The position numbers and the translations under genes are program-made. From the NCBI GenBank assembly GCA_964388035.1, contig CAYLZE010000098.1:1-17773 (forward strand): a stretch of 17,773 nt of DNA. Reading direction: 5' to 3'. Below the pieces are notes generated by a model. It worked only from the letters and a program-made list of their open reading frames with translations. It ran no database searches and was not told the origin of the DNA. This DNA is from an uncultured archaeon. Lineage in GTDB: Archaea; Asgardarchaeota; Lokiarchaeia; Sigyniarchaeales; SOKP01. The number at the start of each line of letters is the position of its first letter. The stretch's first letter is position 1. This document shows, piece after piece, positions 1 to 17,773 of this stretch.

Positions 1-593
1 TCTTAATGTTAACTGGTAAGATATTTGAACTTGGGGACCTTATTGATACAAATGGTGTGCAGGGCATAGTCAATGACATCACTTTAAATTATACTAAAAT
101 TAAGGAATTTGATGGTGTAATTAATTATTTGCCAAATGTGAATATATTTAATTCATCTGTGACAAAGTTTACGCATAAAATGTCTAAAAAAGTAAATCAT
201 GAAGAAATGCCCGAGAATGGAAATACAAAAGATAAGGTTGTCCAGTATGGAAAAATGGTTAAAAAAATTATAGAAAGTGATAAAAAAGTTACTTCTTACG
301 TTAAAAATGTAGAAGTCCTTGGAACATTAAATCCCAAAGAATTGGATTCATTATTATCTCAAATATTTGATAAATATGAAACAATATTGGGCTTGCGTCC
401 TACTTATAACGTAAATAATTCAGTGGCTGATCGATTTAGCTTATCCCTGAGAATAAATTCCACCGATCCCCAGCTGGTCCTTAAATATACGGATGCATTC
501 ACGAGAGATGTACTATTCAAACTCCATTATAATGATATCTTTTCGGGATGGAAAGAATATAAGAGTAAGAATAAGGGAAAGGAGGGATCGTGA
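1..593 (+). CDS. MscS-family mechanosensitive channel-like protein (5'-partial)
   Basis: IFELGDLIDTNGVQGIVNDITLNYTKIKEFDGVINYLPN matches the MscS middle beta-domain pattern (FxxGDxIx...GxVxxIxLxxTxIxxxDG...PN). The frame is open to the window edge and the TM helices are missing, so the true start lies upstream and ATG at 6 is probably internal. Confidence 0.75.
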   Translation, partial: LMLTGKIFELGDLIDTNGVQGIVNDITLNYTKIKEFDGVINYLPNVNIFNSSVTKFTHKMSKKVNHEEMPENGNTKDKVVQYGKMVKKIIESDKKVTSYVKNVEVLGTLNPKELDSLLSQIFDKYETILGLRPTYNVNNSVADRFSLSLRINSTDPQLVLKYTDAFTRDVLFKLHYNDIFSGWKEYKSKNKGKEGS

Positions 594-595
594 AT

Positions 596-1504
596 ATGGC
601 ATTATTCAGCACAGATTTAGAAGCAAGCATTTATATTGTACTAATAACGATAATCTTAATCTTAATTAACAACTTGGTCTCCTTTTTGCTGAAAAAGCTT
701 AAATCGGTTTCCATTAAATATCGCACCATCGCGAAGTTCGTTTTAAGATTAGCCTCTATCATATCAATAATATATCTTATAATTGAGGGATTACCATCTT
801 TTACGTCAATTGATCCCACTTATCAGGCAATTCTTACGGGCTCTATTAGCACGGCTATTGCATTTGCATCAAGTGGAATTTTTTCTAATTTAATTTCGGG
901 TATTATTTTATTGATTCTTAGACCTTTCGATGTTGGTGACTTAGTTAAAATTAATAATGATAAGGGTATTATTCGATCCGTTAATTTAACCAGAATTGTC
1001 ATGGAAACTTTTGATTATATTATCATTCAAAAGTCGAATAGTACCGTAATTTCTTCTCCGATTGTAAATTACACCATTAAATTGGGGAAATTAAAAAATT
1101 TTCAAGAGTTCCAAAAGAAAATCAACGCACCTTTAGATGAGGGCATTATCGACATGTTCTCTCGCTCCCCCGATGAACAGAAATTAGATTATGAAAAAGA
1201 TTTACAATTACTCTATGATAAAATTTCGAAGAAACGAGCGCATAATATTTACGTTTATTCTTTTGTCATGGATTTCCCTTATGTGCGATTTAGAATCATA
1301 TTGGATCAAGTGGAAGACTTATGCAGAGAATATCGGGAAAAATATATTTTTGGTTTAAAACCCCGTTATAATGTATTAAGCTTTGGATTTAAAATTCAAT
1401 TAAAAATTCGAATTTTAAGTTTAAATTCAGATAAAATCTTTGATCATCAATCTCAATTTGCAAATGATCTAAATAAGATAATCTATGCGAATAAAATGAA
1501 TTAA
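596..1504 (+). CDS. MscS-family mechanosensitive channel-like protein
   Basis: Three N-terminal hydrophobic segments, then AIAFASSGIFSNLISGIILLILRPFDVGDLVKIN..G.I..VNL (TM3 plus beta-domain). SD-like GGAGGG at 581-586 fits ATG 596. GTG 590, overlapping the upstream TGA, is an alternative start. Confidence 0.85.
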   Translation: MALFSTDLEASIYIVLITIILILINNLVSFLLKKLKSVSIKYRTIAKFVLRLASIISIIYLIIEGLPSFTSIDPTYQAILTGSISTAIAFASSGIFSNLISGIILLILRPFDVGDLVKINNDKGIIRSVNLTRIVMETFDYIIIQKSNSTVISSPIVNYTIKLGKLKNFQEFQKKINAPLDEGIIDMFSRSPDEQKLDYEKDLQLLYDKISKKRAHNIYVYSFVMDFPYVRFRIILDQVEDLCREYREKYIFGLKPRYNVLSFGFKIQLKIRILSLNSDKIFDHQSQFANDLNKIIYANKMN

Positions 1505-1590
1505 TTAATTCTAAATTCGTAAAATTTACAAATTTTCATTCCCTTTTTCCTTTAATTTATCGATTTCTAATTGAGTTTTTTATTAATACA

Positions 1591-2460
1591 ATGAATGCAA
1601 TTCACATGAAACTTTTCGAAGATTTAGATATCGGAGAGCGATTTCCTACCGTAGTTATGGGCGTACTAAACATCAGTCCGGAATCATTTTATGAAGGGTC
1701 CATCTATACCACCCAAAATGAATTACGAGATGCAACAGAACAAATGATTAGAAATGGTGCTAAAATATTGGACATGGGAGGTCGTTCGACAGCGCCATGG
1801 TCTAAAAAAATAACGATTAAAGAAGAAATCGCTCGTCTTGGTCCTGCTTTGGAATATATCTGCCCTATTATTCCTGATAGTATCATTCTTTCGGTTGACA
1901 CTCAATACGAGCAAGTGGCACAAAAAGCTCATGAAATCATTGCAAAATACAATAAAAAGATGATTCTTAATGATGTTAGTTGCTTAAAAACAGACTCATC
2001 TTTAATCGAATTCATTATTAGAACTCAGATTCCAATTATTATTATGGCTTCTAAAAAAGTTCCGGGAGATTTATTGGAAATGGATGACATTTTGCTAGAA
2101 TTCAAAAATGTTCTCAAATTGTTAGATAATAAAGGATACGATACGAAAAAGATAATTCTCGATCCAGGTATTGGTCATTGGGTCGAGGAAAAAAGTTATA
2201 AATACGATTTAAAAATCATTAATAACCTAAAGAAACTCAAAGAATTGAACCAACCCATACTTGTAGCCATATCGAGGAAATCATTTATTGGAGAAATCTT
2301 AAAAACACCTAACCCAAAAGATCGATTGAATGGAACTCTCTCCGCAACAGCTATTGCAGTTTACAATGGGGCGAACATTGTAAGAACTCATGATGTCAAT
2401 CGACAATTAAGTGAAATAATTAAAATTGCAGAACAACTCCGCTGGCAACAAAATCAATAA
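1591..2460 (+). CDS. folP: Dihydropteroate synthase (pterin-binding TIM barrel), archaeal-type
   Basis: Motifs VMGVLNISPESFY, LDMGGRSTAP, SVDT, LNDVS, ILDPGIG, SRKSFIG and IVRTHDV. Alternative start at ATG 1606. Confidence 0.88.
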   Translation: MNAIHMKLFEDLDIGERFPTVVMGVLNISPESFYEGSIYTTQNELRDATEQMIRNGAKILDMGGRSTAPWSKKITIKEEIARLGPALEYICPIIPDSIILSVDTQYEQVAQKAHEIIAKYNKKMILNDVSCLKTDSSLIEFIIRTQIPIIIMASKKVPGDLLEMDDILLEFKNVLKLLDNKGYDTKKIILDPGIGHWVEEKSYKYDLKIINNLKKLKELNQPILVAISRKSFIGEILKTPNPKDRLNGTLSATAIAVYNGANIVRTHDVNRQLSEIIKIAEQLRWQQNQ

Positions 2461-2942
2461 TACCTCATTCTAAGCAAATTTTTGGGGTGAAAATTATAAG
2501 TGCTCTAAATTGTAATTTCTAATTTTCTTATCTTTTCGATAAAGAATTATCCTCTTCTTAATAAAGATATAATTAAGCTGTTTTTTCTTTGATTCATCTG
2601 AAAAAATTAAATTTTATATAAGAATTTGTCATCATTTAAATTTTTTTTACTAAAATGCGTGTTACGCCATATAGAATTGTCTAATTTTTATTAATCATTT
2701 CTTAGGTATGAAAAATTAGAAAGGTAAATAAGGAGTCGCTTTTTGAGAAAAAATAAATTTTTTTATGAGAATTGGTGAAAGTGAATGAGCTCCAACAAAT
2801 TTTGTTTCTTTCCGCTACAATAAAATTTGTATAAACATTAATAAGGAGAAATCATTATATATATATTAGAGAGATATATCTTTTTCAGTTCAGATTATAT
2901 TTTAAACCGAGTTTTATAGAATTTTTTACCCCAATCTATTAA

Positions 2943-4931
<1,989 letters not shown>

Positions 4932-4973
4932 TTGAACGTTTAATTAAATATAAAATAGGGATGAGGTTATTTT

Positions 4974-7427
4974 ATGACTACGGAACAAATTGATGAAGTT
5001 TTATTAAAGAATGAAATGGAAAGCAGTTATATCGACTATGCAATGTCTGTAGTCGTTGGGAGAGCGATTCCAGATGTGAGAGATGGACTCAAGCCCGTAC
5101 ATAAGAGAATTATTTATGCAATGGAAGATAATAATCAATTATTTAATCGTCCTCACGTGAAGAGCGCTAGAATCGTGGGAGAGGTTTTGGGGAAATATCA
5201 TCCTCACGGAGATGCTGCTATTTATAACAGCTTGGTGCGAATGGCTCAAGATTTTTCCTTACGGTATCCTCTTATTAATCCCCAAGGAAATTTTGGATCA
5301 ATTGATGGAGATGAACCTGCTGCCATGCGATATACGGAAGCAAGGCTTTCCGAAATCGCAAATGAGTTAATTGAAGACTTACATAAAGATACGGTAGATT
5401 TTCAACCGAATTTTGACGATAGCTTGCAAGAACCTCGCTATTTGCCTGCTAAATTACCAAACATTTTAGTGAATGGCACTAAAGGGATAGCAGTTGGAAT
5501 GGCAACCTCCATGCCCCCTCATAATTTGATAGAAATTTGCCAAGGAATCATTTCTACGATAGATAATCCTGACATTTCCGTAGAAGAACTCATGGAAATC
5601 ATTAAAGGACCCGATTTTCCCACGGGAGGGATTATTACCAATACCACGGGAATATATAATGCATATTCCACGGGAAGGGGAAAAATATCTCTTAGGGGGA
5701 AAGTTAAACTGGAGGCAAAGGGTGAAAAAAAGAGGCTCGTAATTATAGAGATTCCTTATTTAATAAACAAGACGAGTCTGGTGGAATCCATTGCGAAACT
5801 AATTAAGGATGGAGTGCTAAAAGATGTAAAGGATTTGCGTGATGAATCTGACAGAGAAGGGTTGCGAATTGTATTAGATCTAAAAACCAATGCTCAGCCC
5901 TCTATAATCAAAAACATTCTTTTTAAACGTACGAGATTATTCACTCGTTTTATAATATTAAATTTAGTACTTACTAATGATGGTAAACTTCCTAAAATCC
6001 TTACATTAAGAGAATTAATTCAAGAATATATTGATCATAGATTAAATATAATCTTACGTCGTTCGGAATTCGATCGCAAAAAAGCAAAAAAAAGATTGCA
6101 TAAAGTAGAGGGATTATTAATCGCTCTCGACAATATTGATGAAGTGATTAAAATAATTAAGTCTTCTCGAGATGCGGATGAAGCAAAAACTAAATTAATA
6201 AGTTCTTACCTGTTAAGTGAAATTCAGGTAAAGGCAATTTTGAACATGCCTCTCTCAAGATTAACCAACTTAGAAAAGCAGAAACTAATTGATGAAAAGA
6301 CCTCGTTGACGAGCACAATTAAAGAATTAACAGATATTATAACTTCAAAAGAATTACGGCTCACAATTATCAAAAAGGAACTCACCGAAATGAGTAAAAA
6401 ATATGGGGATGAGCGTCGTACTAAGATCCTTCAAAATGAGGGGCTAAGAGATCTTGTGAAGAAGGACCTCATTAAAAAAGAGCCTACCATTGTTATAATG
6501 ACTAATAATCATTATATTAAGAGAATTTCTTTAGATGAATATGAAACCCAAAAACGAGGTGGGCGAGGAAAGAAAGGGATTACGATTGGAGAAGAAGATT
6601 TTATTTTAGATTTATTTGTATGTTCTACTCACGATACTATCCTCTTCTTCACGTCAAAAGGTCGTGTTTATTCCATAAAGGCTTTTGAAATTCCCTCTCA
6701 AAAACGGACTTCAAAAGGAAAACCGATCGTCAACATGATTCCCTTAAAAGAAAACGAAGATATTTCAGAAATGATCCCTATTAACAATTTTAATACCAAT
6801 GACATGCTCATCATGGTAACTCAAAAAGGGATCATAAAAAAATGCAGATTAAAGCTATTCTCTAAAATAAACAAATCAGGAATTAGAGCTCAAAAAATAA
6901 AACCCGAGGATATCTTGGTCCGCGTTAAAAAATTAACTAATGAATTACAAGATATTTTTATCACGACAAAATTGGGATATGCTATCAGATTTGATGAAAC
7001 AGAATTACGAGAACTGGGAAGAACATCAATGGGAGTTAAGGGAGTCGACTTGCGCGAAGATGATGAGGTGATAGATTGCTTGCTGGTAACGGATGATGAT
7101 ATCGTACTCACTATCACTAAAAAGGGCTATGCTCAAAGGACATTGATCAAAGAATATCGTAAAACAGGGAGAGCGGCGAAAGGTGTCATAAACATTACTT
7201 TACAAGAGGAAGAAAGAGATGAAGTCATCGCTTCGAGGATAGCTAAAGATAAAGATTTAATTATAGGAACAGAACAAGGGCAGATGATCCGGGTTCCCGT
7301 GGATTCCATTCGAATAACACATCGAAAGGCAAAAGGAGTGCGCGCCATTAATCTTTACGAAGATGATAATGTTTCAGCAATCGGAAAATGTGCAAAAGAA
7401 ATGAGCGATGAAGAATTGGACAATTAG
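4974..7427 (+). CDS. gyrA: DNA gyrase subunit A
   Basis: YAMSVVVGRAIPDVRDGLKPVHKR, GKYHPHGD, catalytic AAMRYTE, GPDFPTGG, GyrA-box QKRGGRG (6549-6569) and a beta-pinwheel CTD. The GyrA-box distinguishes it from ParC. SD GAGGT at 4963-4967. Confidence 0.97.
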   Translation: MTTEQIDEVLLKNEMESSYIDYAMSVVVGRAIPDVRDGLKPVHKRIIYAMEDNNQLFNRPHVKSARIVGEVLGKYHPHGDAAIYNSLVRMAQDFSLRYPLINPQGNFGSIDGDEPAAMRYTEARLSEIANELIEDLHKDTVDFQPNFDDSLQEPRYLPAKLPNILVNGTKGIAVGMATSMPPHNLIEICQGIISTIDNPDISVEELMEIIKGPDFPTGGIITNTTGIYNAYSTGRGKISLRGKVKLEAKGEKKRLVIIEIPYLINKTSLVESIAKLIKDGVLKDVKDLRDESDREGLRIVLDLKTNAQPSIIKNILFKRTRLFTRFIILNLVLTNDGKLPKILTLRELIQEYIDHRLNIILRRSEFDRKKAKKRLHKVEGLLIALDNIDEVIKIIKSSRDADEAKTKLISSYLLSEIQVKAILNMPLSRLTNLEKQKLIDEKTSLTSTIKELTDIITSKELRLTIIKKELTEMSKKYGDERRTKILQNEGLRDLVKKDLIKKEPTIVIMTNNHYIKRISLDEYETQKRGGRGKKGITIGEEDFILDLFVCSTHDTILFFTSKGRVYSIKAFEIPSQKRTSKGKPIVNMIPLKENEDISEMIPINNFNTNDMLIMVTQKGIIKKCRLKLFSKINKSGIRAQKIKPEDILVRVKKLTNELQDIFITTKLGYAIRFDETELRELGRTSMGVKGVDLREDDEVIDCLLVTDDDIVLTITKKGYAQRTLIKEYRKTGRAAKGVINITLQEEERDEVIASRIAKDKDLIIGTEQGQMIRVPVDSIRITHRKAKGVRAINLYEDDNVSAIGKCAKEMSDEELDN

Positions 7428-7493
7428 AATCAACATGTCCTTGAAATGATTAATGCGTATCATATTGCCTAAACTTCGGACTTTTCCTTATTT

Positions 7494-7515
7494 ATTAGGT
7501 TAATACCTAATTTTT
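7494..7515 (+). terminator. Hairpin plus T-tract downstream of gyrA (candidate terminator)
   Basis: ATTAGGT-TAAT-ACCTAAT (7-bp perfect stem) followed by TTTT, about 65 nt after the gyrA stop. Confidence 0.4.
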
Positions 7516-7523
7516 AAAAATGA

Positions 7524-7649
7524 TTATAGAGTTATTACCTTGATATCACAAGGAATATTTTTATAGAGTTATTACCTTGATATCACAAGGAATATTTTAA
7601 ATTCTTATAGAGTTTTTACCTTGATATCACAAGGAATATTTTAAACTCT
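7524..7649. repeat. Three tandem copies of a 37-bp palindrome-containing repeat (periods 37 and 44 bp)
   Basis: TTATAGAGTT(A/T)TTACCTTGATATCACAAGGAATATTT at 7524-7560, 7561-7597 and 7605-7641. Copies 2 and 3 are followed by TAAA(T/C)TC. The core is CCTTG-ATATCA-CAAGG. Confidence 0.95.
7639..7645 (+). promoter_or_regulatory. Candidate archaeal TATA box for the GIFT-RHH gene
   Basis: TTTTAAA preceded by purine-rich AAGGAA (BRE-like), 48 nt upstream of ATG 7693 and overlapping the end of repeat copy 3. Confidence 0.3.
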
Positions 7650-7692
7650 TGCTTTGAACTTCTCATGTTATGACTATCTAATAGGGAGTGAA

Positions 7693-8655
7693 ATGGAAAG
7701 TAATAGAAGAAATACTATAGGATTTGATCAATCTCATAATAATAAATTAATAATAGAAGAACCTGCTTTTTCAGATTTCTTAGAATATTTATTCAATTCC
7801 AATTTTAAAATTGGCAAAATTGAAGCGGGTTTAAATTATGAAAAACTCTCAGTATATGAAATATTTTTTATAGGGCTTCCAGAAGACTCATATCTTGAAG
7901 ATCACGAGATCGTGGATTTGGTTAAATACGTAGAAGATGGAGGAAGCTTATTCATTATAAATGATAATGGGGGAGACGTGAAAAATAAAAATAACCTATC
8001 TATTTTAACGAAACATTTCGGAATTTTTTTTAATCCTGATGAATTACATGATGAGGAACAATTTTCCTTGGATTCTTCTCGCCCCATTATAACGGATTTT
8101 CAATCTCATTTTATCAGCAATGATTTAACACAAATAATACATTCCAAAGGTTGCACCCTTACAGTTGATAAATCTATCGAACAAGAACAAGAAATAGATT
8201 TTAATATACACGTAAATGCTATAGCTTTTTCTTCGGAAAGTACCTCTTGGCGTGAGTATTACAATGGTGAAGAATGGATAAAAGAATCAAATATAAAACT
8301 GCCCATTATTGCTGCTACTCATTATGGACTGGGAAAAGTTGTGGCAATTGGAAATTTATCCATTTTTTCCAGCCTGCAAGATTCATATGGGATAAAAGCG
8401 GCAGATGATTTTAAATTTATATCAAATTCAATTGCTTGGCTATTGAATAAAGCATTTTCTGAAGAAATTAAGCAAACGCTCCCCATCATGCTTACGATTC
8501 CTATTGATCAAGAAATTTTTTATTGGATAAAAGAGAAGATTAAGCAAGGAAAATGGAAAAACATAAAGGAAATCGTAAATTTTGCTCTAAGAGTCGTAAA
8601 AATAAGAGAAGAAAATTCATCCCCTAAAAGAGAAGAATCCTTTTTAGGGATTTGA
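7693..8655 (+). CDS. GIFT (GldG/IFT52, DUF4350-like) domain protein with a C-terminal ribbon-helix-helix domain
   Basis: TIGFDQSHN..., EI..LVKYVEDGGSLFII.D.GG...N..L...FGI.FN.D, GCTLTV and PIIAA...G.GKVVAIG...IFS......D..F..N.I.WL follow the GIFT-domain pattern. The C-terminal LTIPIDQEIFYWIKEKIKQGKWKNIKEIVNFALR (within 8482-8601) resembles a CopG/ParD-type RHH. ATG 7693 with AGGGAG upstream is preferred over TTG 7654. Confidence 0.72.
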   Translation: MESNRRNTIGFDQSHNNKLIIEEPAFSDFLEYLFNSNFKIGKIEAGLNYEKLSVYEIFFIGLPEDSYLEDHEIVDLVKYVEDGGSLFIINDNGGDVKNKNNLSILTKHFGIFFNPDELHDEEQFSLDSSRPIITDFQSHFISNDLTQIIHSKGCTLTVDKSIEQEQEIDFNIHVNAIAFSSESTSWREYYNGEEWIKESNIKLPIIAATHYGLGKVVAIGNLSIFSSLQDSYGIKAADDFKFISNSIAWLLNKAFSEEIKQTLPIMLTIPIDQEIFYWIKEKIKQGKWKNIKEIVNFALRVVKIREENSSPKREESFLGI

Positions 8656-8693
8656 ATTAATTATTATATCTTTAATTAATAGCGTGAAATAAA

Positions 8694-9224
8694 ATGATTA
8701 AAACTTCAAAAAAGGAACTTCTAATCGGTTTAATATCTGATACTCACGTTCCATCTCGAGAACCAGCTATACCCGAACAGATCATAAAAGATTTTAAACG
8801 ACGAAAAATCGATTTTCTCTTTCACATGGGAGATTTTGAACAGTATTCTGTATACGAGAAATTAATTGAAACCTTTGGAAAAGATAAGGTAATTGCTGTC
8901 TTTGGGAACATGGATGATGAAAAAATCAGAAAAATGCTACCGTCCCAATTAGAATTCGATTTGTTTGGTCATAAAATTTTCATGACCCACGGTTTAGGCG
9001 GTCCGAACATTATTATTAAACGGCTCAATAAAAATTTTGATCTATCCAAATACGATATCATTATTTTTGGGCACGTGCATCGTCCATATAACGAGAGATG
9101 GAGAGATGGAAAGCTTTATTTGAATCCTGGAACACCTACTGATAAGAGATTTACAGATATTAATTCTTATGCTTTTCTAACACTTTCTGAGTCAAAAGTT
9201 AATTTTGATCTTGTTTATCTCTAA
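8694..9224 (+). CDS. Metallophosphoesterase, MJ0936/YfcE/Vps29 family
   Basis: ISDTH, HMGD, GNMD, THG, FGHVH and LNPG calcineurin-like motifs in a 176-aa protein. Confidence 0.9.
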   Translation: MIKTSKKELLIGLISDTHVPSREPAIPEQIIKDFKRRKIDFLFHMGDFEQYSVYEKLIETFGKDKVIAVFGNMDDEKIRKMLPSQLEFDLFGHKIFMTHGLGGPNIIIKRLNKNFDLSKYDIIIFGHVHRPYNERWRDGKLYLNPGTPTDKRFTDINSYAFLTLSESKVNFDLVYL

Positions 9225-9253
9225 ACTTTTTTAAATTGAATTCTCTAAAGGTT

Positions 9254-9276
9254 GAAATTCATTCCCATTGAATTTC
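9254..9276. other. Inverted repeat downstream of the phosphoesterase gene
   Basis: GAAATTCA-N7-TGAATTTC, an 8-bp perfect stem. It could be a terminator or an operator. Confidence 0.35.
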
Positions 9277-9386
9277 TCTAGTTTAAAAACTTGATTTCAC
9301 TCCGAACCATTTTATATAATGAAAACTTCTAATAAAATTGATGATTATTTGAATTCTTAACAAGTTAGTTGATAATATTTCCCTTA

Positions 9387-10262
9387 ATGGAGGAGGTAGT
9401 AATTCTGCAAGAATTTAGCTTATCTTCTAAAGAAAGTAAAGTAGTTATATTAGGATCTGGCACACCTATTCCCGATCCTAATAAATCCGGGCCCTCAGTT
9501 GCTATTATTGTGGGAAATTTTTCGTATATTGTAGATTGCGGACCGGGCATTGTGAGAAGAGCCGTTGCCGCACATCAAAAATATGCTCTAAAAGCACTTG
9601 AACTTAAAAATCTAAAAAGGTTATTTTTAACTCATCTCCACAGTGATCACACCCTCGGGTATTCTGATTTAATCTTTACTCCTTGGGTAATGGGAAGGAA
9701 TGCACCCTTGAATACTTATGGACCTAAAGGAACTCTTGCCATGACGAATCATTTGCTCGCAGCTTATAGAGAGGATATAAGAGAACGTGTGGACGGATTA
9801 GAACATGCCAATAATCGTGGTTATCGTGTCAACGTTCAAGAAATTAACCCCGGTCTTATTTACGAAGATAATCGAGTGAAAGTGGAAGCATTTTTGGTCA
9901 ATCATGGTTCTTGGCCATGTTTTGGATTTAAATTTTTTACTCCCGACAGAGTTATCGTGATTTCTGGAGATACGGCGCCAACTGACCATTTAATAGACCA
10001 TTATATGAACTGTAATGTTTTAATTCATGAAGTGTATGCATCTAAAGCTTTTACCACGCGACCAATGGCATGGCAAGTATATCATTCTCATGTTCACACA
10101 TCAAGTCGAGAATTATCTAGAATTGCTTCTAAAGTTAAACCGGATTTATTAATTTTATACCATCAACTTTACTGGAACTCTACGGATGATGAACTAATCG
10201 CTGAAATTAAAGCTAATTATTCCGGAAGGATTGTTTCGGGAAAAGATTTAGAGATATATTAA
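9387..10262 (+). CDS. MBL-fold metallohydrolase (RNase Z/AtsA-like superfamily, no exosite arm)
   Basis: ILGSGTP, VDCGPG, THLHSDH, NHG, SGDT, HEV, HT and YH motifs. The start is uncertain: ATG 9387 or SD-positioned CTG 9405. Confidence 0.88.
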   Translation: MEEVVILQEFSLSSKESKVVILGSGTPIPDPNKSGPSVAIIVGNFSYIVDCGPGIVRRAVAAHQKYALKALELKNLKRLFLTHLHSDHTLGYSDLIFTPWVMGRNAPLNTYGPKGTLAMTNHLLAAYREDIRERVDGLEHANNRGYRVNVQEINPGLIYEDNRVKVEAFLVNHGSWPCFGFKFFTPDRVIVISGDTAPTDHLIDHYMNCNVLIHEVYASKAFTTRPMAWQVYHSHVHTSSRELSRIASKVKPDLLILYHQLYWNSTDDELIAEIKANYSGRIVSGKDLEIY

Positions 10263-10314
10263 GATAAATAAGAAGAATTTGCTTTAAATTTCTTTTAATG
10301 CGAGAAATTATTAA

Positions 10315-10339
10315 CAAGGAAAAAGAGATAAAAAAATAA
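10315..10339 (-). terminator. T-rich terminator after the GTPase gene
   Basis: The minus strand reads TTATTTTTTTATCTCTTTTTCCTTG immediately after the stop codon, an archaeal-type oligo-T tract. Confidence 0.4.
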
Positions 10340-10954
10340 TTAAGTTCCTTCTATAGCCTTTCCCGAAAGCTTTTTGTAGTGGTTTAAAACCGCTTGCCTT
10401 GTTGCGTAAACAAATGCTTTTTTAACGTTGACACCAGTTATAGCAATGGTCTCATAAATTAAAGTATGGTTCAATTTTGCCGTGTCAAGCACTTTTCTAA
10501 TTTTAGAAATCTCCACGATATCCTCTAAATCACGCTTATTGGCAAGTACTACTAAAGGAACATCTGGAGGCTCAGTAATACCCGAAGGAATCAAGCGATC
10601 TCCATAAAATTTTAATAATTCTTTAAGAGACCAGATGTCCTCGTCCCATTGATCTATTAACGAATCCCAGGTAAAGATGACCGCATCTGTTCCTTTAAGA
10701 ACGGTTTGTCTCTGAAATTTATGCCTCCTCTGCCCTGCTACAGTATAGACTTGAAAAACTACGTTAGAAACTCTGGCTACAACTCTATCAAAGAATAATG
10801 TCCGTCCCGTGGGATCTTGAATTTGTTGCATTTCTCCACTTGCTAACCCTTCCTTATGATATACCCATTCAAGTGCAGTAGTTTTACCTCCCAAACTGGG
10901 ACCGTAAAAACAAACTTTAAAGACTAATGTTCCATCTCCTCGACGACTCGGCAG
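10340..10954 (-). CDS. MglA-like (Arf/Rab-related) small GTPase, 204 aa, probable CTG start
   Basis: The extended frame reads (M)PSRRGDGTLVFKVCFYGPSLGGKTT (G1), PTGRTLFFD (G2, MglA-type with intrinsic Arg), YTVAGQ (G3), LANKRD (G4) and TIAITG (G5). The ORF-track start at TTG 10894 falls inside the P-loop. Confidence 0.9.
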   Translation of the reverse strand: MPSRRGDGTLVFKVCFYGPSLGGKTTALEWVYHKEGLASGEMQQIQDPTGRTLFFDRVVARVSNVVFQVYTVAGQRRHKFQRQTVLKGTDAVIFTWDSLIDQWDEDIWSLKELLKFYGDRLIPSGITEPPDVPLVVLANKRDLEDIVEISKIRKVLDTAKLNHTLIYETIAITGVNVKKAFVYATRQAVLNHYKKLSGKAIEGT

Positions 10955-10962
10955 CGGTTAGA

Positions 10963-10969
10963 CACCTCC
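10963..10969 (-). promoter_or_regulatory. Strong Shine-Dalgarno GGAGGTG for the GTPase
   Basis: The minus strand reads GGAGGTG-TCTAACCG-CTG, an 8-nt spacing to the in-frame CTG. Confidence 0.8.
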
Positions 10970-11218
10970 AAAGACTCTGGCTTTAACATTCATGAATAAG
11001 AACCTTTTGTTGAAATGAAATTATTTAAGATTATATTATGTATAAAACTCTTGTAATTTAAAAATTTGCTTATGGGAAAAAAGTCTGATCTCAATGAATT
11101 GTAAAAGTTTAGAATTAAAAGAATAGAATTTTATTAGACCCGCCGTTTAATATGAATAACAACGGAGTTTTTACACGTTAAAGAACGTCGACATATGATT
11201 TAAAGAAGAAGTAATGGT

Positions 11219-12127
11219 ATGAATGATAAGAGAATTGGTATAATTGGCATGCGCCATGACTTGGGGCAAAATCGGCGCGGAGTAGATATGGGTCCGAGTG
11301 CCATTCGATTTGCAAAGTTAAATTCTCAACTTAATGAAATAGGATATAAGGTCATAGATTATGGTGATATTGAATGTTGCACTTATGAAACAGGCACGAT
11401 GGGAGATCCTAAGGCCAGATTTCTTCAAGATATCGTGAAACATTGTAGTGAATTAAGGGATCACATCAGAGAAATTACTAAGAAAGAAATCTTCCCTTTA
11501 ATCTTAGGTGGGGATCATTCCATCACAATGGGTAGCATTTCTGGGATGGTTTCTCATCATCAAGAGATTGGTTTAATTTACATGGATGCCCACGGAGACT
11601 TTAATACTCCCCAGACATCACCTAGTGGCAATGTTCACGGTATGAGTTTAGCTGCAATTACGGGGAGAGGGCCGTCCTCTTTAACTTCTTTAGCAGGAAA
11701 AGTTCCGATGATTAATGAAGAGAGAGTATCTCTCATTGGAGTGCGGCGTTTAGACCCAAAAGAAAAAGAGAATTTAAAGAAAAGTAAAATAAAAGTATTT
11801 ACAATCAAAGAGATTGATGAAGAGGGAATTTCAGAGGTAATGAAAGAAGCTATAGAAGTAGTAACCCAAGGTCTTGAATCGAAAAAATTTCATTTTAGTA
11901 TGGATGTAGATAGCATTGAACCATCTGTTGCTCCGGGTACCGGCACCACTGTTCCTGGAGGATTAAGTTATAGAGAAGCCCATTTAGCATGTGAGTTAAT
12001 AGCAGAGAGTAAACAAATGATCTCCATGGATGTAGTTGAAGTAAACCCTATTTTAGATTTGGCTAATGCGACAGGAAAACTAGTAGTAGAATTAATCTTA
12101 AGTTCGCTTGGGAAAACAATTTTATAA
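11219..12127 (+). CDS. rocF: Arginase
   Basis: DLGQNRRGVDMGPSAIR, LGGDHS, DAHGDFNTP..SPSGNVHGM, DVD..(E)P..APGTGT.VPGGL and EVNP are binuclear Mn arginase motifs. Confidence 0.92.
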   Translation: MNDKRIGIIGMRHDLGQNRRGVDMGPSAIRFAKLNSQLNEIGYKVIDYGDIECCTYETGTMGDPKARFLQDIVKHCSELRDHIREITKKEIFPLILGGDHSITMGSISGMVSHHQEIGLIYMDAHGDFNTPQTSPSGNVHGMSLAAITGRGPSSLTSLAGKVPMINEERVSLIGVRRLDPKEKENLKKSKIKVFTIKEIDEEGISEVMKEAIEVVTQGLESKKFHFSMDVDSIEPSVAPGTGTTVPGGLSYREAHLACELIAESKQMISMDVVEVNPILDLANATGKLVVELILSSLGKTIL

Positions 12128-12492
12128 GAAATGATTGCAGAATAAATCCACTTTCTTGGTCAATTTAGAAAAGAAATAATAACTCTTGTTAAAAAAAATA
12201 TAATGCTTGATTTAGGACTTGAACATATTAATTTGAAAAAAGTTTAATTAAATAAATAAATAGGTTGCCTCATTTACCTTTGTTAACATTATTGCCAACC
12301 ATTAAACCAAGAGAAACAAACTTAGAATGTTTTAAAAATTCTAATTTTTTATTTTTTTCATTAAATTAATCCAGATATTCATGTAAAATACTTTAGTTCT
12401 TAACTCTAATCAAAAATATTTCATTAATTGGCTCTAAACTTTTATAATAATGAATTTTATTATCTTTTAAATTTACAATAATTGACCGCATT

Positions 12493-13926
12493 ATGAAAAC
12501 AATACAGTATAAATGGATTGCCCTTTCTTGTACTAGCATGGGTGCTTTATTTGCTATCTTTCAAAGTACAGCATTAATAATTGCCATTCCTTCTATCATG
12601 ATAGAACTTAATACATCATTCACCGTCATATTATGGGTATTGATGAGTTATCTGTTAATTATTACCATCTTTGTTCCGGCCATTGGTCGCGTGGCAGATA
12701 TTATGGGGCGAAAAAAGTTATTTGTTCAGGGATTTGTGATTTTTACGGTTGGTTCACTTTTATCGGGGATTTCCATTAACGGGGAGATGTTAATTTTGTT
12801 TCGAATTATTCAAGCCTCTGGAGCCGTTCTATTGATTACCAATAGTACTGCAATCGTGACGGATGCCTTTCCGAAAAAAGAACTTGGAAAAGCATTGGGT
12901 ATTAATGGAATGGTAATTAGCGCTGGAGCTGTTGCTGGCCCCATAATAGGCGGAGCATTAACGCTGATTACTTGGCGATTAATCTTTTATGTAAATATTC
13001 CAGTAGGTATATTTGGCACGATATGGGCTCAAAAACAATTACGTAAAATTGGAAATCTCCCACAAAATCAGACTTTTGATTGGAAAGGGACAATAATATT
13101 TTCATCAGGAATGTTAATCCTTCTTTTAGGTAGTACTTTTGGCGCGTTTCTGGGATGGGTAAATCCCCTTATTATTACTAGTTTTATTTCCTCTATAATT
13201 TTAATCGGACTATTTATATGGCTTGAAAACAATATGGAACAACCAATGTTAGACTTAAACCTTTTTAAAACACGCATATTAGCTTTTGCTTTGATCTCTA
13301 ATTTAATGAATGGAATTGCAAGAGGTGCCGTAACGTTCCTTTTAGTATTATATTTTCAAGGGATTAAAGAGTTTGATCCACTTATAGCAGGTATTTTGCT
13401 AACACCATTCGCCGCAATCATGATGGTCGTATCCCCTTATAGTGGAAGATTATCCGATCAATATGGTTCTCGAGGCTTAAGTACATTGGGATTGATAATC
13501 ACCGCAGTTGGGTTGATAGGATTTATTATAATTAAGCCAAATACTAGCATTCCAATTATCATTATCTGGATGATCATAATGGGAATTGGGTCTGGCATGT
13601 TTTTTTCTCCTAATACGAATACAATAATGGGCAATGTACCACCAGGAAAAAGAGGGATTGCTTCTGGAACTCGAACTATGATGACAAATATAGGAAGTAT
13701 CATTAGTCTCGTAATTACCTTAGCAGTAATAACATCTACAATGACTTCAGAAGCATTACAAGGTCTATTTACAGGCACTCAAATTGGTTCCGAAGGAATT
13801 AATATTACTTTATTCATGAATGGATTACATTTTGTCTTTTGGTTTTCTTTTATTATTAGTTTGATAGGCGCATTCTTGTCATATCTGCGAGGACCAAACC
13901 CCATGCTTGATAATGTGCCCACTTAA
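12493..13926 (+). CDS. MFS drug-efflux transporter, DHA2 (EmrB/QacA-like, 14 TM)
   Basis: Motif A GRVADIMGRKK and its repeat GRLSDQYGSR, motif C GAVAGPIIGG, WRLIFYVNIPVG, FDWKG and PMLDLNLF, with many TM segments. Confidence 0.92.
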   Translation: MKTIQYKWIALSCTSMGALFAIFQSTALIIAIPSIMIELNTSFTVILWVLMSYLLIITIFVPAIGRVADIMGRKKLFVQGFVIFTVGSLLSGISINGEMLILFRIIQASGAVLLITNSTAIVTDAFPKKELGKALGINGMVISAGAVAGPIIGGALTLITWRLIFYVNIPVGIFGTIWAQKQLRKIGNLPQNQTFDWKGTIIFSSGMLILLLGSTFGAFLGWVNPLIITSFISSIILIGLFIWLENNMEQPMLDLNLFKTRILAFALISNLMNGIARGAVTFLLVLYFQGIKEFDPLIAGILLTPFAAIMMVVSPYSGRLSDQYGSRGLSTLGLIITAVGLIGFIIIKPNTSIPIIIIWMIIMGIGSGMFFSPNTNTIMGNVPPGKRGIASGTRTMMTNIGSIISLVITLAVITSTMTSEALQGLFTGTQIGSEGINITLFMNGLHFVFWFSFIISLIGAFLSYLRGPNPMLDNVPT

Positions 13927-14068
13927 TATTATATCTCTTCACATTCCTCACTATAGGGTGATTAAATTTTATCTTATTAAATTAATGATTAATCACGATA
14001 TTGAGTATTATAATTTAAAATGTATGGATACAAAAAAGAAGGAGAGAGAAAGGGTATTAATTTACACT

Positions 14069-14839
14069 TTATTGAATGATTCTTTTTACCATAACGGACG
14101 CACAAGAAATTAACGTAACAGTCCATAAAACAAGGACGAGAAAGTCTAACCATAAAGTGTTATAGTCGCCAGTTAATAATAAAGCCCGCATCCCGTCTAC
14201 TGCATATGTTAATGGATTGACAATCGCTACTACTTGGAGCCAAGCTGGCATTAGCTCAATTGGATAAATAGCATTACCGGCAAAAAATAGTGGCATCGTG
14301 ATTGCTTGGCCTATTCCCATCATCCGATCCCGAGTTTTAAGTAATGAAGCAATCAACATGGATAAACATGAAAATAACATAGCAATCAAAACGCAAAAGG
14401 CTAGAATTCCAAGAATAGATCCGAAAGATATGCGAAGTGTTACTCCTAGAATTAATGCGAAAATAAAAATTGTTATAGCTTGAAAAACACCCCGCACGCC
14501 AGCAGCTAATGATTTTCCAGTTATAATAGCTGCTCTTGGCGCAGGTGTGGCTAATAACTTACTTAATAAACCAAGATCTCGTTCCCACACAAGAATAATT
14601 CCGTAAAAGATCGCAATAAATAAAACCGATTGAGCAAGCACACCTGGAGTTAGAAATTGTAAATAAGTATAATTGCTTGTATTCAATTCTCGAACGTGAC
14701 TCAAGGAAACTCCAAAAATTAATAGCCAGAAAATGGGTTGAAGCGTCCGAATCCATAATTCCGTTGAATTATGACGAATTTTACGGACTTCCATTTCCGC
14801 AATGGCAAATACGCCCCAAAAAAATTTTTTAATTAACAT
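14069..14839 (-). CDS. ABC-2 type exporter permease (DrrB-like)
   Basis: YLQFLTPG, WERDLG.L.KLLATP, GK and NPLTYAVDGMR, with about 6 TM segments. Confidence 0.92.
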   Translation of the reverse strand: MLIKKFFWGVFAIAEMEVRKIRHNSTELWIRTLQPIFWLLIFGVSLSHVRELNTSNYTYLQFLTPGVLAQSVLFIAIFYGIILVWERDLGLLSKLLATPAPRAAIITGKSLAAGVRGVFQAITIFIFALILGVTLRISFGSILGILAFCVLIAMLFSCLSMLIASLLKTRDRMMGIGQAITMPLFFAGNAIYPIELMPAWLQVVAIVNPLTYAVDGMRALLLTGDYNTLWLDFLVLVLWTVTLISCASVMVKRIIQ

Positions 14840-14864
14840 GTTTTTTTTCTCTCACCCTTTAATT

Positions 14865-15875
14865 TCATGAAGCACGTTTTTTAAAATTCCGTCGGGTCAT
14901 GCGAGATTCTTTAAAACTTTTCGTATCTATAAGCCTAGTATGCGTATATTTAAGAAACACGTCGTCTAATGTTGGTTGACTAAACGTAATAGATTTAATT
15001 TTAAGTCCAGTAGCAGAAAAAGTTTGGAGAATTAATGGAAGAGAATCAGATCCATTATTTGTATGAACGATAAAAGTTTGATTATTTGGAGCATGAACAA
15101 TTTTTCCTAAATTAGGTGGAATTGATATTAATTCTAAAGATTTTGTTGAAGGAACCGTATCTTCGAAAATTATGGTGATTATATCTTCACCGATTGATTG
15201 TTTTAATTCTTTAGGTGTACCAGTAATTACAATTTTGCCAGCATCAATAATCGAAATACGATGGCAAAGCTCATCAGCTTCTACCATATCATGTGTTGTA
15301 ATAAAGATTGTCGCTTTTAAATTCTGATTAATTTCTCTAATATATTGCCATACTTGTCGGCGAGTGGAAGGATCTAGACCTATACTCGGTTCGTCTAAAA
15401 AGAGAATCTTTGGTTGATTCACAAGTGCTTGTGCGATTTCTAATCGTCGCATCATCCCACCGGAATAATGTTTTGCTAAATCCTTAGCACGATCCGTCAA
15501 TCCCATATAAGATAATGCATTCATTACGCGCATTTTTCGCTCTTTTGAATTCACATAACACAATTTTGCATAAATCAGGAGATTTTCATACCCAGTAAGA
15601 TCTCCATCTATAGATATTTCTTGTGGGACATACCCCATAATTTGGCGAACATTGCTCGGATACTTTCTCGCATCGATTCCGAAAACATTAATAGTGCCTT
15701 CTGTTGGTTTCGATAAAGTCATCAACATCTTTATGAGAGTTGTTTTGCCAGCACCATTAGGACCTAAGAAGCCGTAAATTTCCCCCCGTTTTATGTCAAA
15801 ATTAACATTATCAACCGCTTTAATATTAGAATAAACTTTAGTTAAATTTTTTACTTCAATCGCAAGGTTTCCCAT
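14865..15875 (-). CDS. ABC exporter ATP-binding subunit (DrrA-like)
   Basis: Walker A GPNGAGKTT, Q-loop YVPQ, signature YSGGM, Walker B LFLDEP, H-loop TTH and C-terminal PTLDDVFL. Confidence 0.95.
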   Translation of the reverse strand: MGNLAIEVKNLTKVYSNIKAVDNVNFDIKRGEIYGFLGPNGAGKTTLIKMLMTLSKPTEGTINVFGIDARKYPSNVRQIMGYVPQEISIDGDLTGYENLLIYAKLCYVNSKERKMRVMNALSYMGLTDRAKDLAKHYSGGMMRRLEIAQALVNQPKILFLDEPSIGLDPSTRRQVWQYIREINQNLKATIFITTHDMVEADELCHRISIIDAGKIVITGTPKELKQSIGEDIITIIFEDTVPSTKSLELISIPPNLGKIVHAPNNQTFIVHTNNGSDSLPLILQTFSATGLKIKSITFSQPTLDDVFLKYTHTRLIDTKSFKESRMTRRNFKKRAS

Positions 15876-16331
15876 GAATTATCCCTTCATCGCGACTCAT
15901 GTTAAAGTAAATATTAAAAAAAATCATTTCCTTAGTAGAAGTTATGATTGTAAAAATCTGCGTTTATCTTAAAGTTATGTGTTTATTACTTTTAACTCAA
16001 TTTCTAATTAATTCAAGTTGGCTAACTCTTTAATTGGTTAACTCTATAGAGGGCAATTTTTTCTATATTTTTCCGTCCTTTAATTCTATGCTTCAAGATA
16101 TTATGGGAATTTTTACTTCAAGCTTTTCCATAATGAGTTAGTTATCCCAGGCTAAACTTACGAAATAACTGCAAAAAGTGAAAAAAATGTTTCAATAAAC
16201 AATGTTAAGTTTAATAGCACTTTTTTTTTTGGGCAATATAAGGGATCATTACACTCAAGTTGAATTTAAGGATTTTAGAAAGATGGTTAAATGAAAATGG
16301 AAAATAAGATATTTTTAACTAAGAGGATTTT

Positions 16332-17483
16332 TTAATCGGGTACTTTTATTGGATAAGTTCCGTATTGATTTTTCACATTTATATATGCAAGATATCTATC
16401 GAGAGTTATAGCGGGATTAATGCTATGTCCAGAACTAAAAATATATCCTCCTCCGGGAGCTAATTCCTTAATTAGTTTTTTGGAATAGGCCTCGATTTCT
16501 GATATTTCTCCTGTAGCGAGCGTCACGGGGGACATGTTGCCAACAAAAGTAATTTTATCTCCATATTTTTCCTCTAATTTAAAGATATCATATTCAGGAT
16601 TAGCGGTAGTTGGTTCGATGGGATTTAAAGCATCAATTCCACAATCAATGATATCTTCGAAAATTTCCATTAGATCCCCATCAGAATGAAGTAATATTTT
16701 ACAATCTCGTTTATGAGCAGCTTCACAAATCCTCTTTAGCCAGGGTAAAACATACGTTCTATAATTTCTGGGACTCATGAACAGCCCATTCTTGAAACCG
16801 TAATCATCCCATAATAAGATTAATTTAGCTTCTAATTCTGCTAAGATTTTAACGAGTTCGAGAGTAAATTCTCCTCGATCATCAAATATCTTTTTGGCCT
16901 GTTTTTGTTTAGCAATTATTCGCGAAAAAGTCTCGATGCCAAAACCTTCCCAGGACACTTCCATTAATGAACCAGTTGCCGGAACCGAAAACACTTCATC
17001 TTTCATTTTTTTTTGAAGTTCCTTTCCCGCTAAATATCCATTCACTCTTCCATCCCATTGAGGATCAGGTTGCTCCCAACTCTCATAATCTTCAAAAGTT
17101 TTAAAATATCCTCCCACATATCCATAGATTATCGTGCCATCTTTCTCATAGATCTCATTTCTCATCATCCGACCATATTCATCTATAATAACACCATTTT
17201 CGAGAACCTTCCGCGGAAAAAGAGAAGTTACGCTGGTTACAATATCTTCCCCTACACGCCGAGCAAATTCATAGGCTTTTTTATACCCCGACTTTAATAC
17301 TTGCTTGCTTCCCGCCAATTCCTTAAGCATCTTTTCAGGAAGTTTTGGAATATTAGTTAACCCTCCTGGTTCTACACCATAATGCTTCATAATAGTATCA
17401 TTCGTAAAAGCACTCTCCCAGTATGGGACTCTATCGGGCTCTTCGTGATTGATTGTCTTTAAAACTCTTTCTTGTGCATTCAT
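16332..17483 (-). CDS. Uroporphyrinogen decarboxylase-family (URO-D/MtaA-CmuA-like) protein
   Basis: N-terminal MNAQERVL..INHEEPDRVP, DEYG, DDYG....LFMSP, LHSDGD, GIDALNPIE, F.GN and LAPGGGYIFSSGHSI. This is the anaerobe URO-D-like subfamily rather than HemE proper. Confidence 0.88.
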   Translation of the reverse strand: MNAQERVLKTINHEEPDRVPYWESAFTNDTIMKHYGVEPGGLTNIPKLPEKMLKELAGSKQVLKSGYKKAYEFARRVGEDIVTSVTSLFPRKVLENGVIIDEYGRMMRNEIYEKDGTIIYGYVGGYFKTFEDYESWEQPDPQWDGRVNGYLAGKELQKKMKDEVFSVPATGSLMEVSWEGFGIETFSRIIAKQKQAKKIFDDRGEFTLELVKILAELEAKLILLWDDYGFKNGLFMSPRNYRTYVLPWLKRICEAAHKRDCKILLHSDGDLMEIFEDIIDCGIDALNPIEPTTANPEYDIFKLEEKYGDKITFVGNMSPVTLATGEISEIEAYSKKLIKELAPGGGYIFSSGHSINPAITLDRYLAYINVKNQYGTYPIKVPD

Positions 17484-17654
17484 AATTTTAAAAAAGACTT
17501 TTTTAATGAGTATATATCATTAATAAAATAATTATTCAAATTAAAGTTTGAAATAATCTATATAATAATAAAAAACAAAAATATATACAATCTATCTATT
17601 CATAAAAGAATCATTTGGAAAAAAAGTATATAAATATTTAGAGAGGATATGAAA

Positions 17655-17773
17655 ATGGAGGAATCAGATTTATACGAAAATCTAAGAAAATTATTAGGAT
17701 CGGGAGGAAATGCTATAGGTCTTCCCAAACATCCCATTACTTATACATTATTGAAAAACATGTACATTGAGGA
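17655..17773 (+). CDS. 3'-partial CDS, probably a 4Fe-4S dicluster-containing protein
   Basis: The frame is open to the window end: MEESDLYENLRKLLGSGGNAIGLPKHPITYTLLKNMYIE. This resembles the DxYExLxxxL...GxP......LLxxxxxxEEA N-terminus of anaerobe ferredoxin-domain proteins. GAGG at 17643-17646; alternative ATG at 17649. The product is inferred from the N-terminus only. Confidence 0.5.
   Translation, partial: MEESDLYENLRKLLGSGGNAIGLPKHPITYTLLKNMYIE

Follow-up and report, generated by a model that had tools for sequence, protein, structure and literature searches.

A CTG codon as the probable start of an MglA-like small GTPase gene in a Lokiarchaeia genome

Where does a gene start when its reading frame offers no canonical start codon ahead of the P-loop? 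This question is raised by a small GTPase gene on contig CAYLZE010000098.1 (C98) of assembly GCA_964388035.1, of which positions 1-17,773 make up the window, that is, the whole stretch of 17,773 nucleotides analysed here. The genome (label G000) belongs to an uncultured Lokiarchaeia archaeon and was assembled from a metagenome; it comprises 5.47 Mb in 211 contigs with ~33% G+C and contains 17 small-GTPase matches. The gene is located on the minus strand, and its neighbours encode an arginase and an MBL-fold hydrolase.

According to the first-pass annotation of the window, the gene would be translated from a CTG codon, and each of the elements on which this proposal was built is found on the minus strand. 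A Shine-Dalgarno (SD) sequence GGAGGTG (10963..10969) lies 8 nt before the CTG (10952..10954), and the 8-nt spacer that separates them contains an in-frame TAA (10960-10958), which closes the frame upstream of the CTG. The 21 codons after this TAA are devoid of ATG, GTG and TTG, and the first canonical start codon is TTG 10894 (10892..10894). No ATT, ATA, ATC or ACG is present between the TAA and TTG 10894 either, and apart from the CTG no codon in that segment differs from ATG at a single position. From the CTG, the frame is open through 204 codons up to a stop codon at 10342-10340; the coding sequence of the MglA-like small GTPase (10340..10954, minus strand, 204 codons plus stop) was assigned on the basis of this open frame, Pfam Arf/Ras matches, matches to MglA structures and orthologues.

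Further upstream, ~105 nt before the CTG, an A/T-rich motif AAATTTTTAAATTA (11054..11067, minus strand) might represent a BRE/TATA box. The pattern ATTTTTA[AT]ATT is kept ~90-105 nt upstream of the start in orthologues from several genera; it is probably a BRE/TATA box, and a leadered mRNA of ~80 nt would be implied. The T-runs directly 3' of the stop codon (10320..10339, minus strand) may be an archaeal oligo-T terminator, as judged from general knowledge of archaeal termination. An Rfam scan of the window returned no family at the gathering score.

The encoded protein was matched by the Pfam families Arf (4e-9) and Ras (3e-7), and no NCBIfam model matched it. Its best solved relatives are the MglA proteins of Thermus and Myxococcus (3t12, 5ymx, 6h17), which align over nearly the full length with E values of 3e-22 to 1.6e-21 (3.2e-22 for 3t12). 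All of the GTPase motifs are intact, including the P-loop GPSLGGKT (GxxxxGK[ST]), GRT in switch I, TVAGQ in switch II and NKRD (NKxD). MglA proteins are distinguished by TxxGQ in place of DxxGQ in switch II and by an Arg-Thr pair in switch I; in the alignment, TVAGQ is paired with MglA TVPGQ and GRT with MglA DRT/ERT. The Asgard protein thus shares with MglA a Ras-superfamily G domain, the GPxLxGKTT P-loop, the RT of switch I, the TVxGQ of switch II with Thr for the usual Asp, and NKRD. Unlike MglA, it has no adjoining Roadblock/MglB gene, and none was found on contig C98; 17 Roadblock-domain genes are located elsewhere in G000. Public names for this family vary from Arf-like to SRP receptor beta and MglA.

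The MglA alignment begins at residues 10-12, with beta-1 and GPxLxGKTT, and it places TTG 10894 inside the P-loop (...GPS-L-GGKT), so a protein started at this TTG would have neither beta-1 nor the first half of the P-loop, as the first-pass annotation had claimed. Its prediction that automated annotation would truncate the gene also came true: the public product (P0098) starts at TTG 10894 and is 184 aa long. Since this product lacks beta-1 and half of the P-loop, a fold, family assignment or function predicted from it would be wrong.

A comparison of start codons in orthologues, which had been proposed as a check, was performed on ~190 orthologous loci of Lokiarchaeia/Promethearchaeota, drawn from three sources that overlap in some genomes, namely related genomes, species-representative genomes and metagenome contigs. 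The gene is single-copy, and orthologues with 65-93% identity were identified in 35 of 41 related genomes. In the ~190 loci, the start codon (ATG, TTG, GTG, ATT or ATA) is the one that aligns with the CTG of the window, and wherever a row has an aligned N-terminus the protein begins there, giving MPSRRGDGTLVFK... (M/L/V/I-PSRRGDGTLVFK). The 168 uninterrupted rows represent 143 distinct DNA sequences. TTG was the start codon in 84 of the 168 rows and ATG in 63, with five more having ATG one codon upstream, followed by ATT (12 rows), GTG (two rows) and ATA (one row). CTG was found in one row only, that of the window, which is the sole CTG among the ~190 orthologues.

A tree was built from the orthologue DNA with the first codon left out, and at least 18 changes of start codon are required on it. 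The G000 gene is paired with that of its same-genus sister G001, which starts with ATG (support 99), and the next nearest rows also start with ATG; because all of these nearest neighbours carry ATG, the CTG most likely arose from ATG in the G000 lineage. An origin from TTG had been suspected, as locus L010 shares the pattern 'TAA CCN YTG', but is less likely in view of the same positions of G001 and the next rows. ATT or ATA arose at least six times among the orthologues, and one ATT clade has kept its ORF intact over 0.15 substitutions per site, a span comparable to the terminal branch of G000 (0.16). Near-cognate starts therefore seem able to persist in this gene, as seen for ATT, with CTG known from one genome among the ~190.

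The codons between CTG and TTG evolve as coding sequence. Between G000 and G001, codons 2-21 carry ~9 synonymous differences and encode an identical protein, and over the whole gene pN is 0.054 against a pS of 0.80, at which synonymous sites are saturated. Judged from these substitutions, the segment from CTG to TTG is under strong purifying selection. This pattern bears on the public gene call, in which translation starts at TTG 10894 and yields the 184-aa protein. TTG is indeed a canonical start codon, and one orthologue (L026/L117) begins at M-GGKTT behind GGTGA. Nevertheless, we regard the public call as very unlikely to be right, since no SD-like motif precedes TTG 10894 in the sequence, the resulting protein would be missing beta-1 and half of the P-loop, and the 20 codons upstream are strongly selected and form part of the protein in nearly all orthologues.

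The L026/L117 locus (G012, probably one genome) deserves a separate description. The first 20 codons are absent from it, the frame opens with ATG-GGT-GGA-AAA, and the start sits just after the GGTGA motif and a short upstream ORF. This form corresponds exactly to the truncation that a start at TTG 10894 would give in the window gene; a genuine loss of the 5' end, a pseudogene or an assembly error could each account for it.

Whether the CTG itself is an artefact was examined in the contigs of other samples. According to this rival explanation, an assembly or sequencing error conceals a true ATG or TTG, and in its favour the genome is metagenome-assembled and the site is supported by contigs and not by raw reads. 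However, three further runs from salt marsh (X2, X3 and X4) yielded separately assembled Logan contigs that carry the CTG and the TAA identically, with 0 differences, and the TAA is unchanged in all three. These contigs are of low depth (3.7-5.2) and probably come from one sampling campaign. An error at 10954 is accordingly rejected at contig level, and we give it hardly any credence. Besides, a rhizosphere metatranscriptome run (X10) yielded a 174-nt contig identical to positions 10620-10793, which weakly hints at transcription in situ, with DNA carry-over as another possible source.

SD sequences have been reported to be rare in Lokiarchaea (PMC7531240, PMC12993045). The 16S rRNA gene of G000 is absent from the assembly, so the anti-SD sequence was taken from the same-family relative G009, whose 16S ends in ...GGATCACCTCCT. 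GGAGGTG is a 7-nt match to this end (...CACCTCCT), to which it is complementary, and it stands at a functional spacing: 5-mers of GGAGGTGA in G000 peak 12-18 nt before first ATGs, as measured from the anchor, and the CTG lies at 15 nt. Among the orthologues, the mean SD match is 4.65 nt for genes starting with ATG or TTG, compared with at least 6 nt for those starting with ATT, ATA or CTG. In seven phylogenetically independent contrasts, the SD was longer with the near-cognate start in five, equal in two and shorter in none (sign test p 0.06, the lowest value attainable with five informative contrasts). These values fit a strong SD that would compensate for a weak start codon.

We then asked how often near-cognate codons occupy such positions in G000 as a whole. 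A survey restricted to GGAGG contained too few sites to be informative, and an anchored test was used instead, in which sites upstream of the first canonical start of 3988 long ORFs were compared in-frame and out-of-frame at SD-anchored distances. In-frame ATT was enriched 5.4-fold (46/317 vs 18/587 out-of-frame, p 7e-10) and in-frame ATA 3.2-fold over out-of-frame (p 0.002). CTG was not enriched at SD-positioned sites, with 2/317 in-frame vs 8/587 out-of-frame. By our own count, the excess of near-cognate starts over chance amounts to ~50 long ORFs (~1.3%).

The two in-frame CTG cases in G000 are the GTPase gene and C81:1225 (L198:201; L201). In the latter, AGGTGA and 6 nt precede the CTG, and a stop codon lies three codons upstream. 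In seven orthologues this CTG aligns with an ATG, and the next 18 residues are conserved. Two intact genes with ATG replaced by CTG in one genome argue that CTG may be usable as a start in this organism, though rare.

Several other genes of G000 begin at near-cognate codons. The HdrA-like gene C16:2293 begins at ATT and the DapA-like gene C1:100943 at ACG, while C24:22938 (L200:201), a Rab/Ras-like GTPase gene, has an ATC start and a P-loop upstream of the first canonical start, which would be cut off by a call at the latter. C41:35823 and C120:8433 also have conserved N-termini upstream of any ATG, GTG or TTG. In these five genes, the ATC, ATT, ACG or ATA start lies 13-14 nt from the SD anchor. 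The gene of aIF1 (SUI1), an initiation factor that governs fidelity, is another case (C78, ~3054-3374; L222:1420-1743), in which no canonical start is found before the CPRC...CIC zinc knuckle; its start is likely the ATT three codons after the upstream stop, which recalls the AUU start of bacterial infC.

An 11-codon upstream ORF, which had escaped the first-pass annotation, runs from ATG 10993 to the TAA at 10958 (10958..10993, minus strand). It is in frame with the GTPase, ends at the same TAA that bounds the GTPase frame, and contains the SD as Gly-Gly codons. Three further explanations make use of its ATG. In the first, the upstream ORF is translated and ribosomes restart 3 nt on at the CTG, which would work only when coupled in this way. 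The canonical ATG of the upstream ORF, a weak AGGT motif at the usual distance before it and the main SD inside it are consistent with such termination-reinitiation, as is the location of its end, which in G000 lies 3 nt before the CTG and in the sister G001, where the ATG of the upstream ORF and the weak AGGT motif recur, immediately adjoins the main ATG; in a few other genera, too, the start is directly preceded by a short ORF. However, an upstream ORF of this type, led by ATG, is missing from most orthologues, several that start with ATT among them, and the peptide of this putative ORF is not conserved beyond the genus. The presence of the upstream ORF does not depend on the CTG, as G001 combines it with an ordinary ATG start. 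Coupling as the sole basis of the start is therefore doubtful in our view, and distinctly so, while upstream-ORF coupling as a modifier of GTPase expression is possible.

In the second explanation, the TAA at 10960 is read through from ATG 10993 and an N-terminally extended GTPase is produced. The ATG is in frame with the GTPase in both G000 and G001, as read-through would demand; however, an extension of this kind is absent from all orthologues, the stop in G001 is immediately followed by an ATG of the gene itself, and no stimulatory structure was detected (fold z +1.0). TAA is also generally the least leaky stop codon. Taken together, these points leave little room for read-through.

The third explanation is splicing: removal of a tRNA-type (bulge-helix-bulge, BHB) mini-intron from the 5' region would connect ATG 10993 with the coding sequence. 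Its appeal lies in the BHB mini-introns of 28-45 nt that orthologues elsewhere carry at many positions of the gene. A BHB element was defined as a 4-bp helix between two 3-nt bulges, with an outer and an inner helix, and its excision had to restore the frame; none was found in the 5' region. The fold of this region is no more stable than that of shuffled sequence (z +1.0), and the BHB scan of 11010-10930 gave three weak hits at chance level, of which the one nearest ATG 10993 removes 47 nt and breaks the frame, while the other two do not join the ATG to the coding frame. Moreover, the homologous region of G001 needs no intron. As far as the sequence shows, a spliced start is thus scarcely conceivable here.

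The inserts themselves are an observation in their own right. GTPase orthologues in other Lokiarchaeial genomes are interrupted by 28-45-nt inserts (mostly 30 nt) at no fewer than nine different positions (L022/L065/L081, L110, L080, L027 with two, L098, L029, L032 with three, L028 and L023/L111). The inserts hold in-frame stops or shift the frame, and the flanking protein is 80-90% conserved. All 12 inserts tested have a 4/4-bp central helix between two mostly A-rich 3-nt bulges with the right separation, and for eight of the 12 the score equals or exceeds one that 1.4% of random sites attain. These inserts resemble tRNA-type (BHB) mini-introns placed in an mRNA; the window copy of the gene has no such mini-intron.

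A different objection is that the change from ATG to CTG was a recent loss of the start codon, which left the gene silent or nearly so, as an incipient pseudogene that has suffered no further damage yet. The occurrence of CTG in G000 only among the ~190 orthologues would be expected in this case, CTG is not enriched genome-wide, and CUG is a poor initiator in E. coli (10.1101/063800). Pseudogene-like decay, which the first-pass annotation had named among the outcomes that would overturn its proposal, was looked for, and no sign of it was seen: the 204 codons contain no frameshift, internal stop or lineage-specific damaging substitution, and none of the residues is unique when compared with the 167 other orthologues. 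The conservation of this single-copy gene at 65-93% across the order argues for its importance. In addition, the lineage keeps an SD of the longest class (7 nt), like the orthologues that start with ATT, a second gene (C81:1225) underwent the same replacement, and the CTG form is present in four samples. The RNA-library contig matching 10620-10793 points in the same direction, weakly, in view of possible DNA carry-over. Start-codon loss is thus unlikely, yet it is an explanation that we take seriously.

The reading that we prefer is that a functional MglA-like GTPase is translated from CTG 10954 by SD-guided near-cognate initiation, and we consider it to be probably correct. The original proposal of CTG initiation is supported by the aligned starts of the orthologues, the selection on the N-terminus, the match and spacing of the SD, and the replacement in C81:1225. 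In the proposed mechanism, the 7-nt SD GGAGGTG would pair with the 3' end of 16S rRNA and position the codon that follows after 8 nt in the ribosomal P site, where the initiator Met-tRNA would read CUG with a first-position mismatch. The product would then be M-PSRRGDGTLVFK..., with an N-terminal sequence identical to that of the orthologues. The anatomy of the locus, the conserved start position, the purifying selection on the N-terminus, the SD spacing and the genome-wide habit of ATT and ATA are shown here, whereas the decoding of the CTG as a start, and its efficiency, are inferred.

We propose two reasons why the CTG is tolerated: Lokiarchaeial initiation may accept near-cognate codons behind a good SD, and the GTPase gene may often be expressed from weak starts. 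As for the latter, TTG accounts for ~50% of the orthologue starts and ATT/ATA for ~8%, compared with ~19% TTG among the first canonical starts of G000, which is a crude figure; weak initiation thus seems to be common in this gene. Relative to AUG, the codons CUG, AUU, AUA and AUC support initiation in E. coli at a level of ~1-2% (bioRxiv 10.1101/063800), and if this rate holds here, the output of the GTPase would be low. An earlier idea, put forward with the CTG proposal, that a weak start limits the dosage of the GTPase fits these data and receives only indirect support from them.

In a broader form, start selection might be systematically relaxed across Lokiarchaeia, in that a long SD would let their eukaryote-like initiation machinery use AUU and AUA (commonly) and CUG, ACG and AUC (rarely) as starts, and the start codon of the GTPase gene would act as a dosage knob, with its at least 18 state changes among ATG, TTG, GTG, ATT, ATA and CTG. 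We are evenly divided on this generalization. A literature search for Asgard starts other than AUG, GUG and UUG, and for archaeal CUG reporter data, returned nothing specific. The biology of this single gene is probably modest, namely that of a weakly translated GTPase. The CTG example, backed by ~190 orthologues, joins the near-cognate starts that recur in Loki-type Asgard archaea, a pattern that affects the gene catalogues used for reconstructing the origin of eukaryotes and raises the question of how the archaeal, eukaryote-like initiation apparatus sets the stringency of start-codon choice.

Finally, two known systems invite comparison. Initiation at CUG occurs in human cells, from which cases have been noted (PMC4705826). 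Eukaryotic CUG initiation and the start proposed here have Met-tRNAi and factors of the eIF1/eIF2 type in common; eukaryotic CUG starts, however, are reached by scanning in a Kozak context, with no SD duplex, and the resemblance is noted here as a likeness only. [quoted passage not shown] These bacterial starts share with the window gene a single-mismatch codon, a normal SD spacing, the use of the initiator tRNA, and low or tuned expression, the last two of which are predicted for the GTPase gene. They differ in their host, which in the present case is an Asgard archaeon equipped with the eukaryote-type factors aIF1, aIF1A and aIF2.
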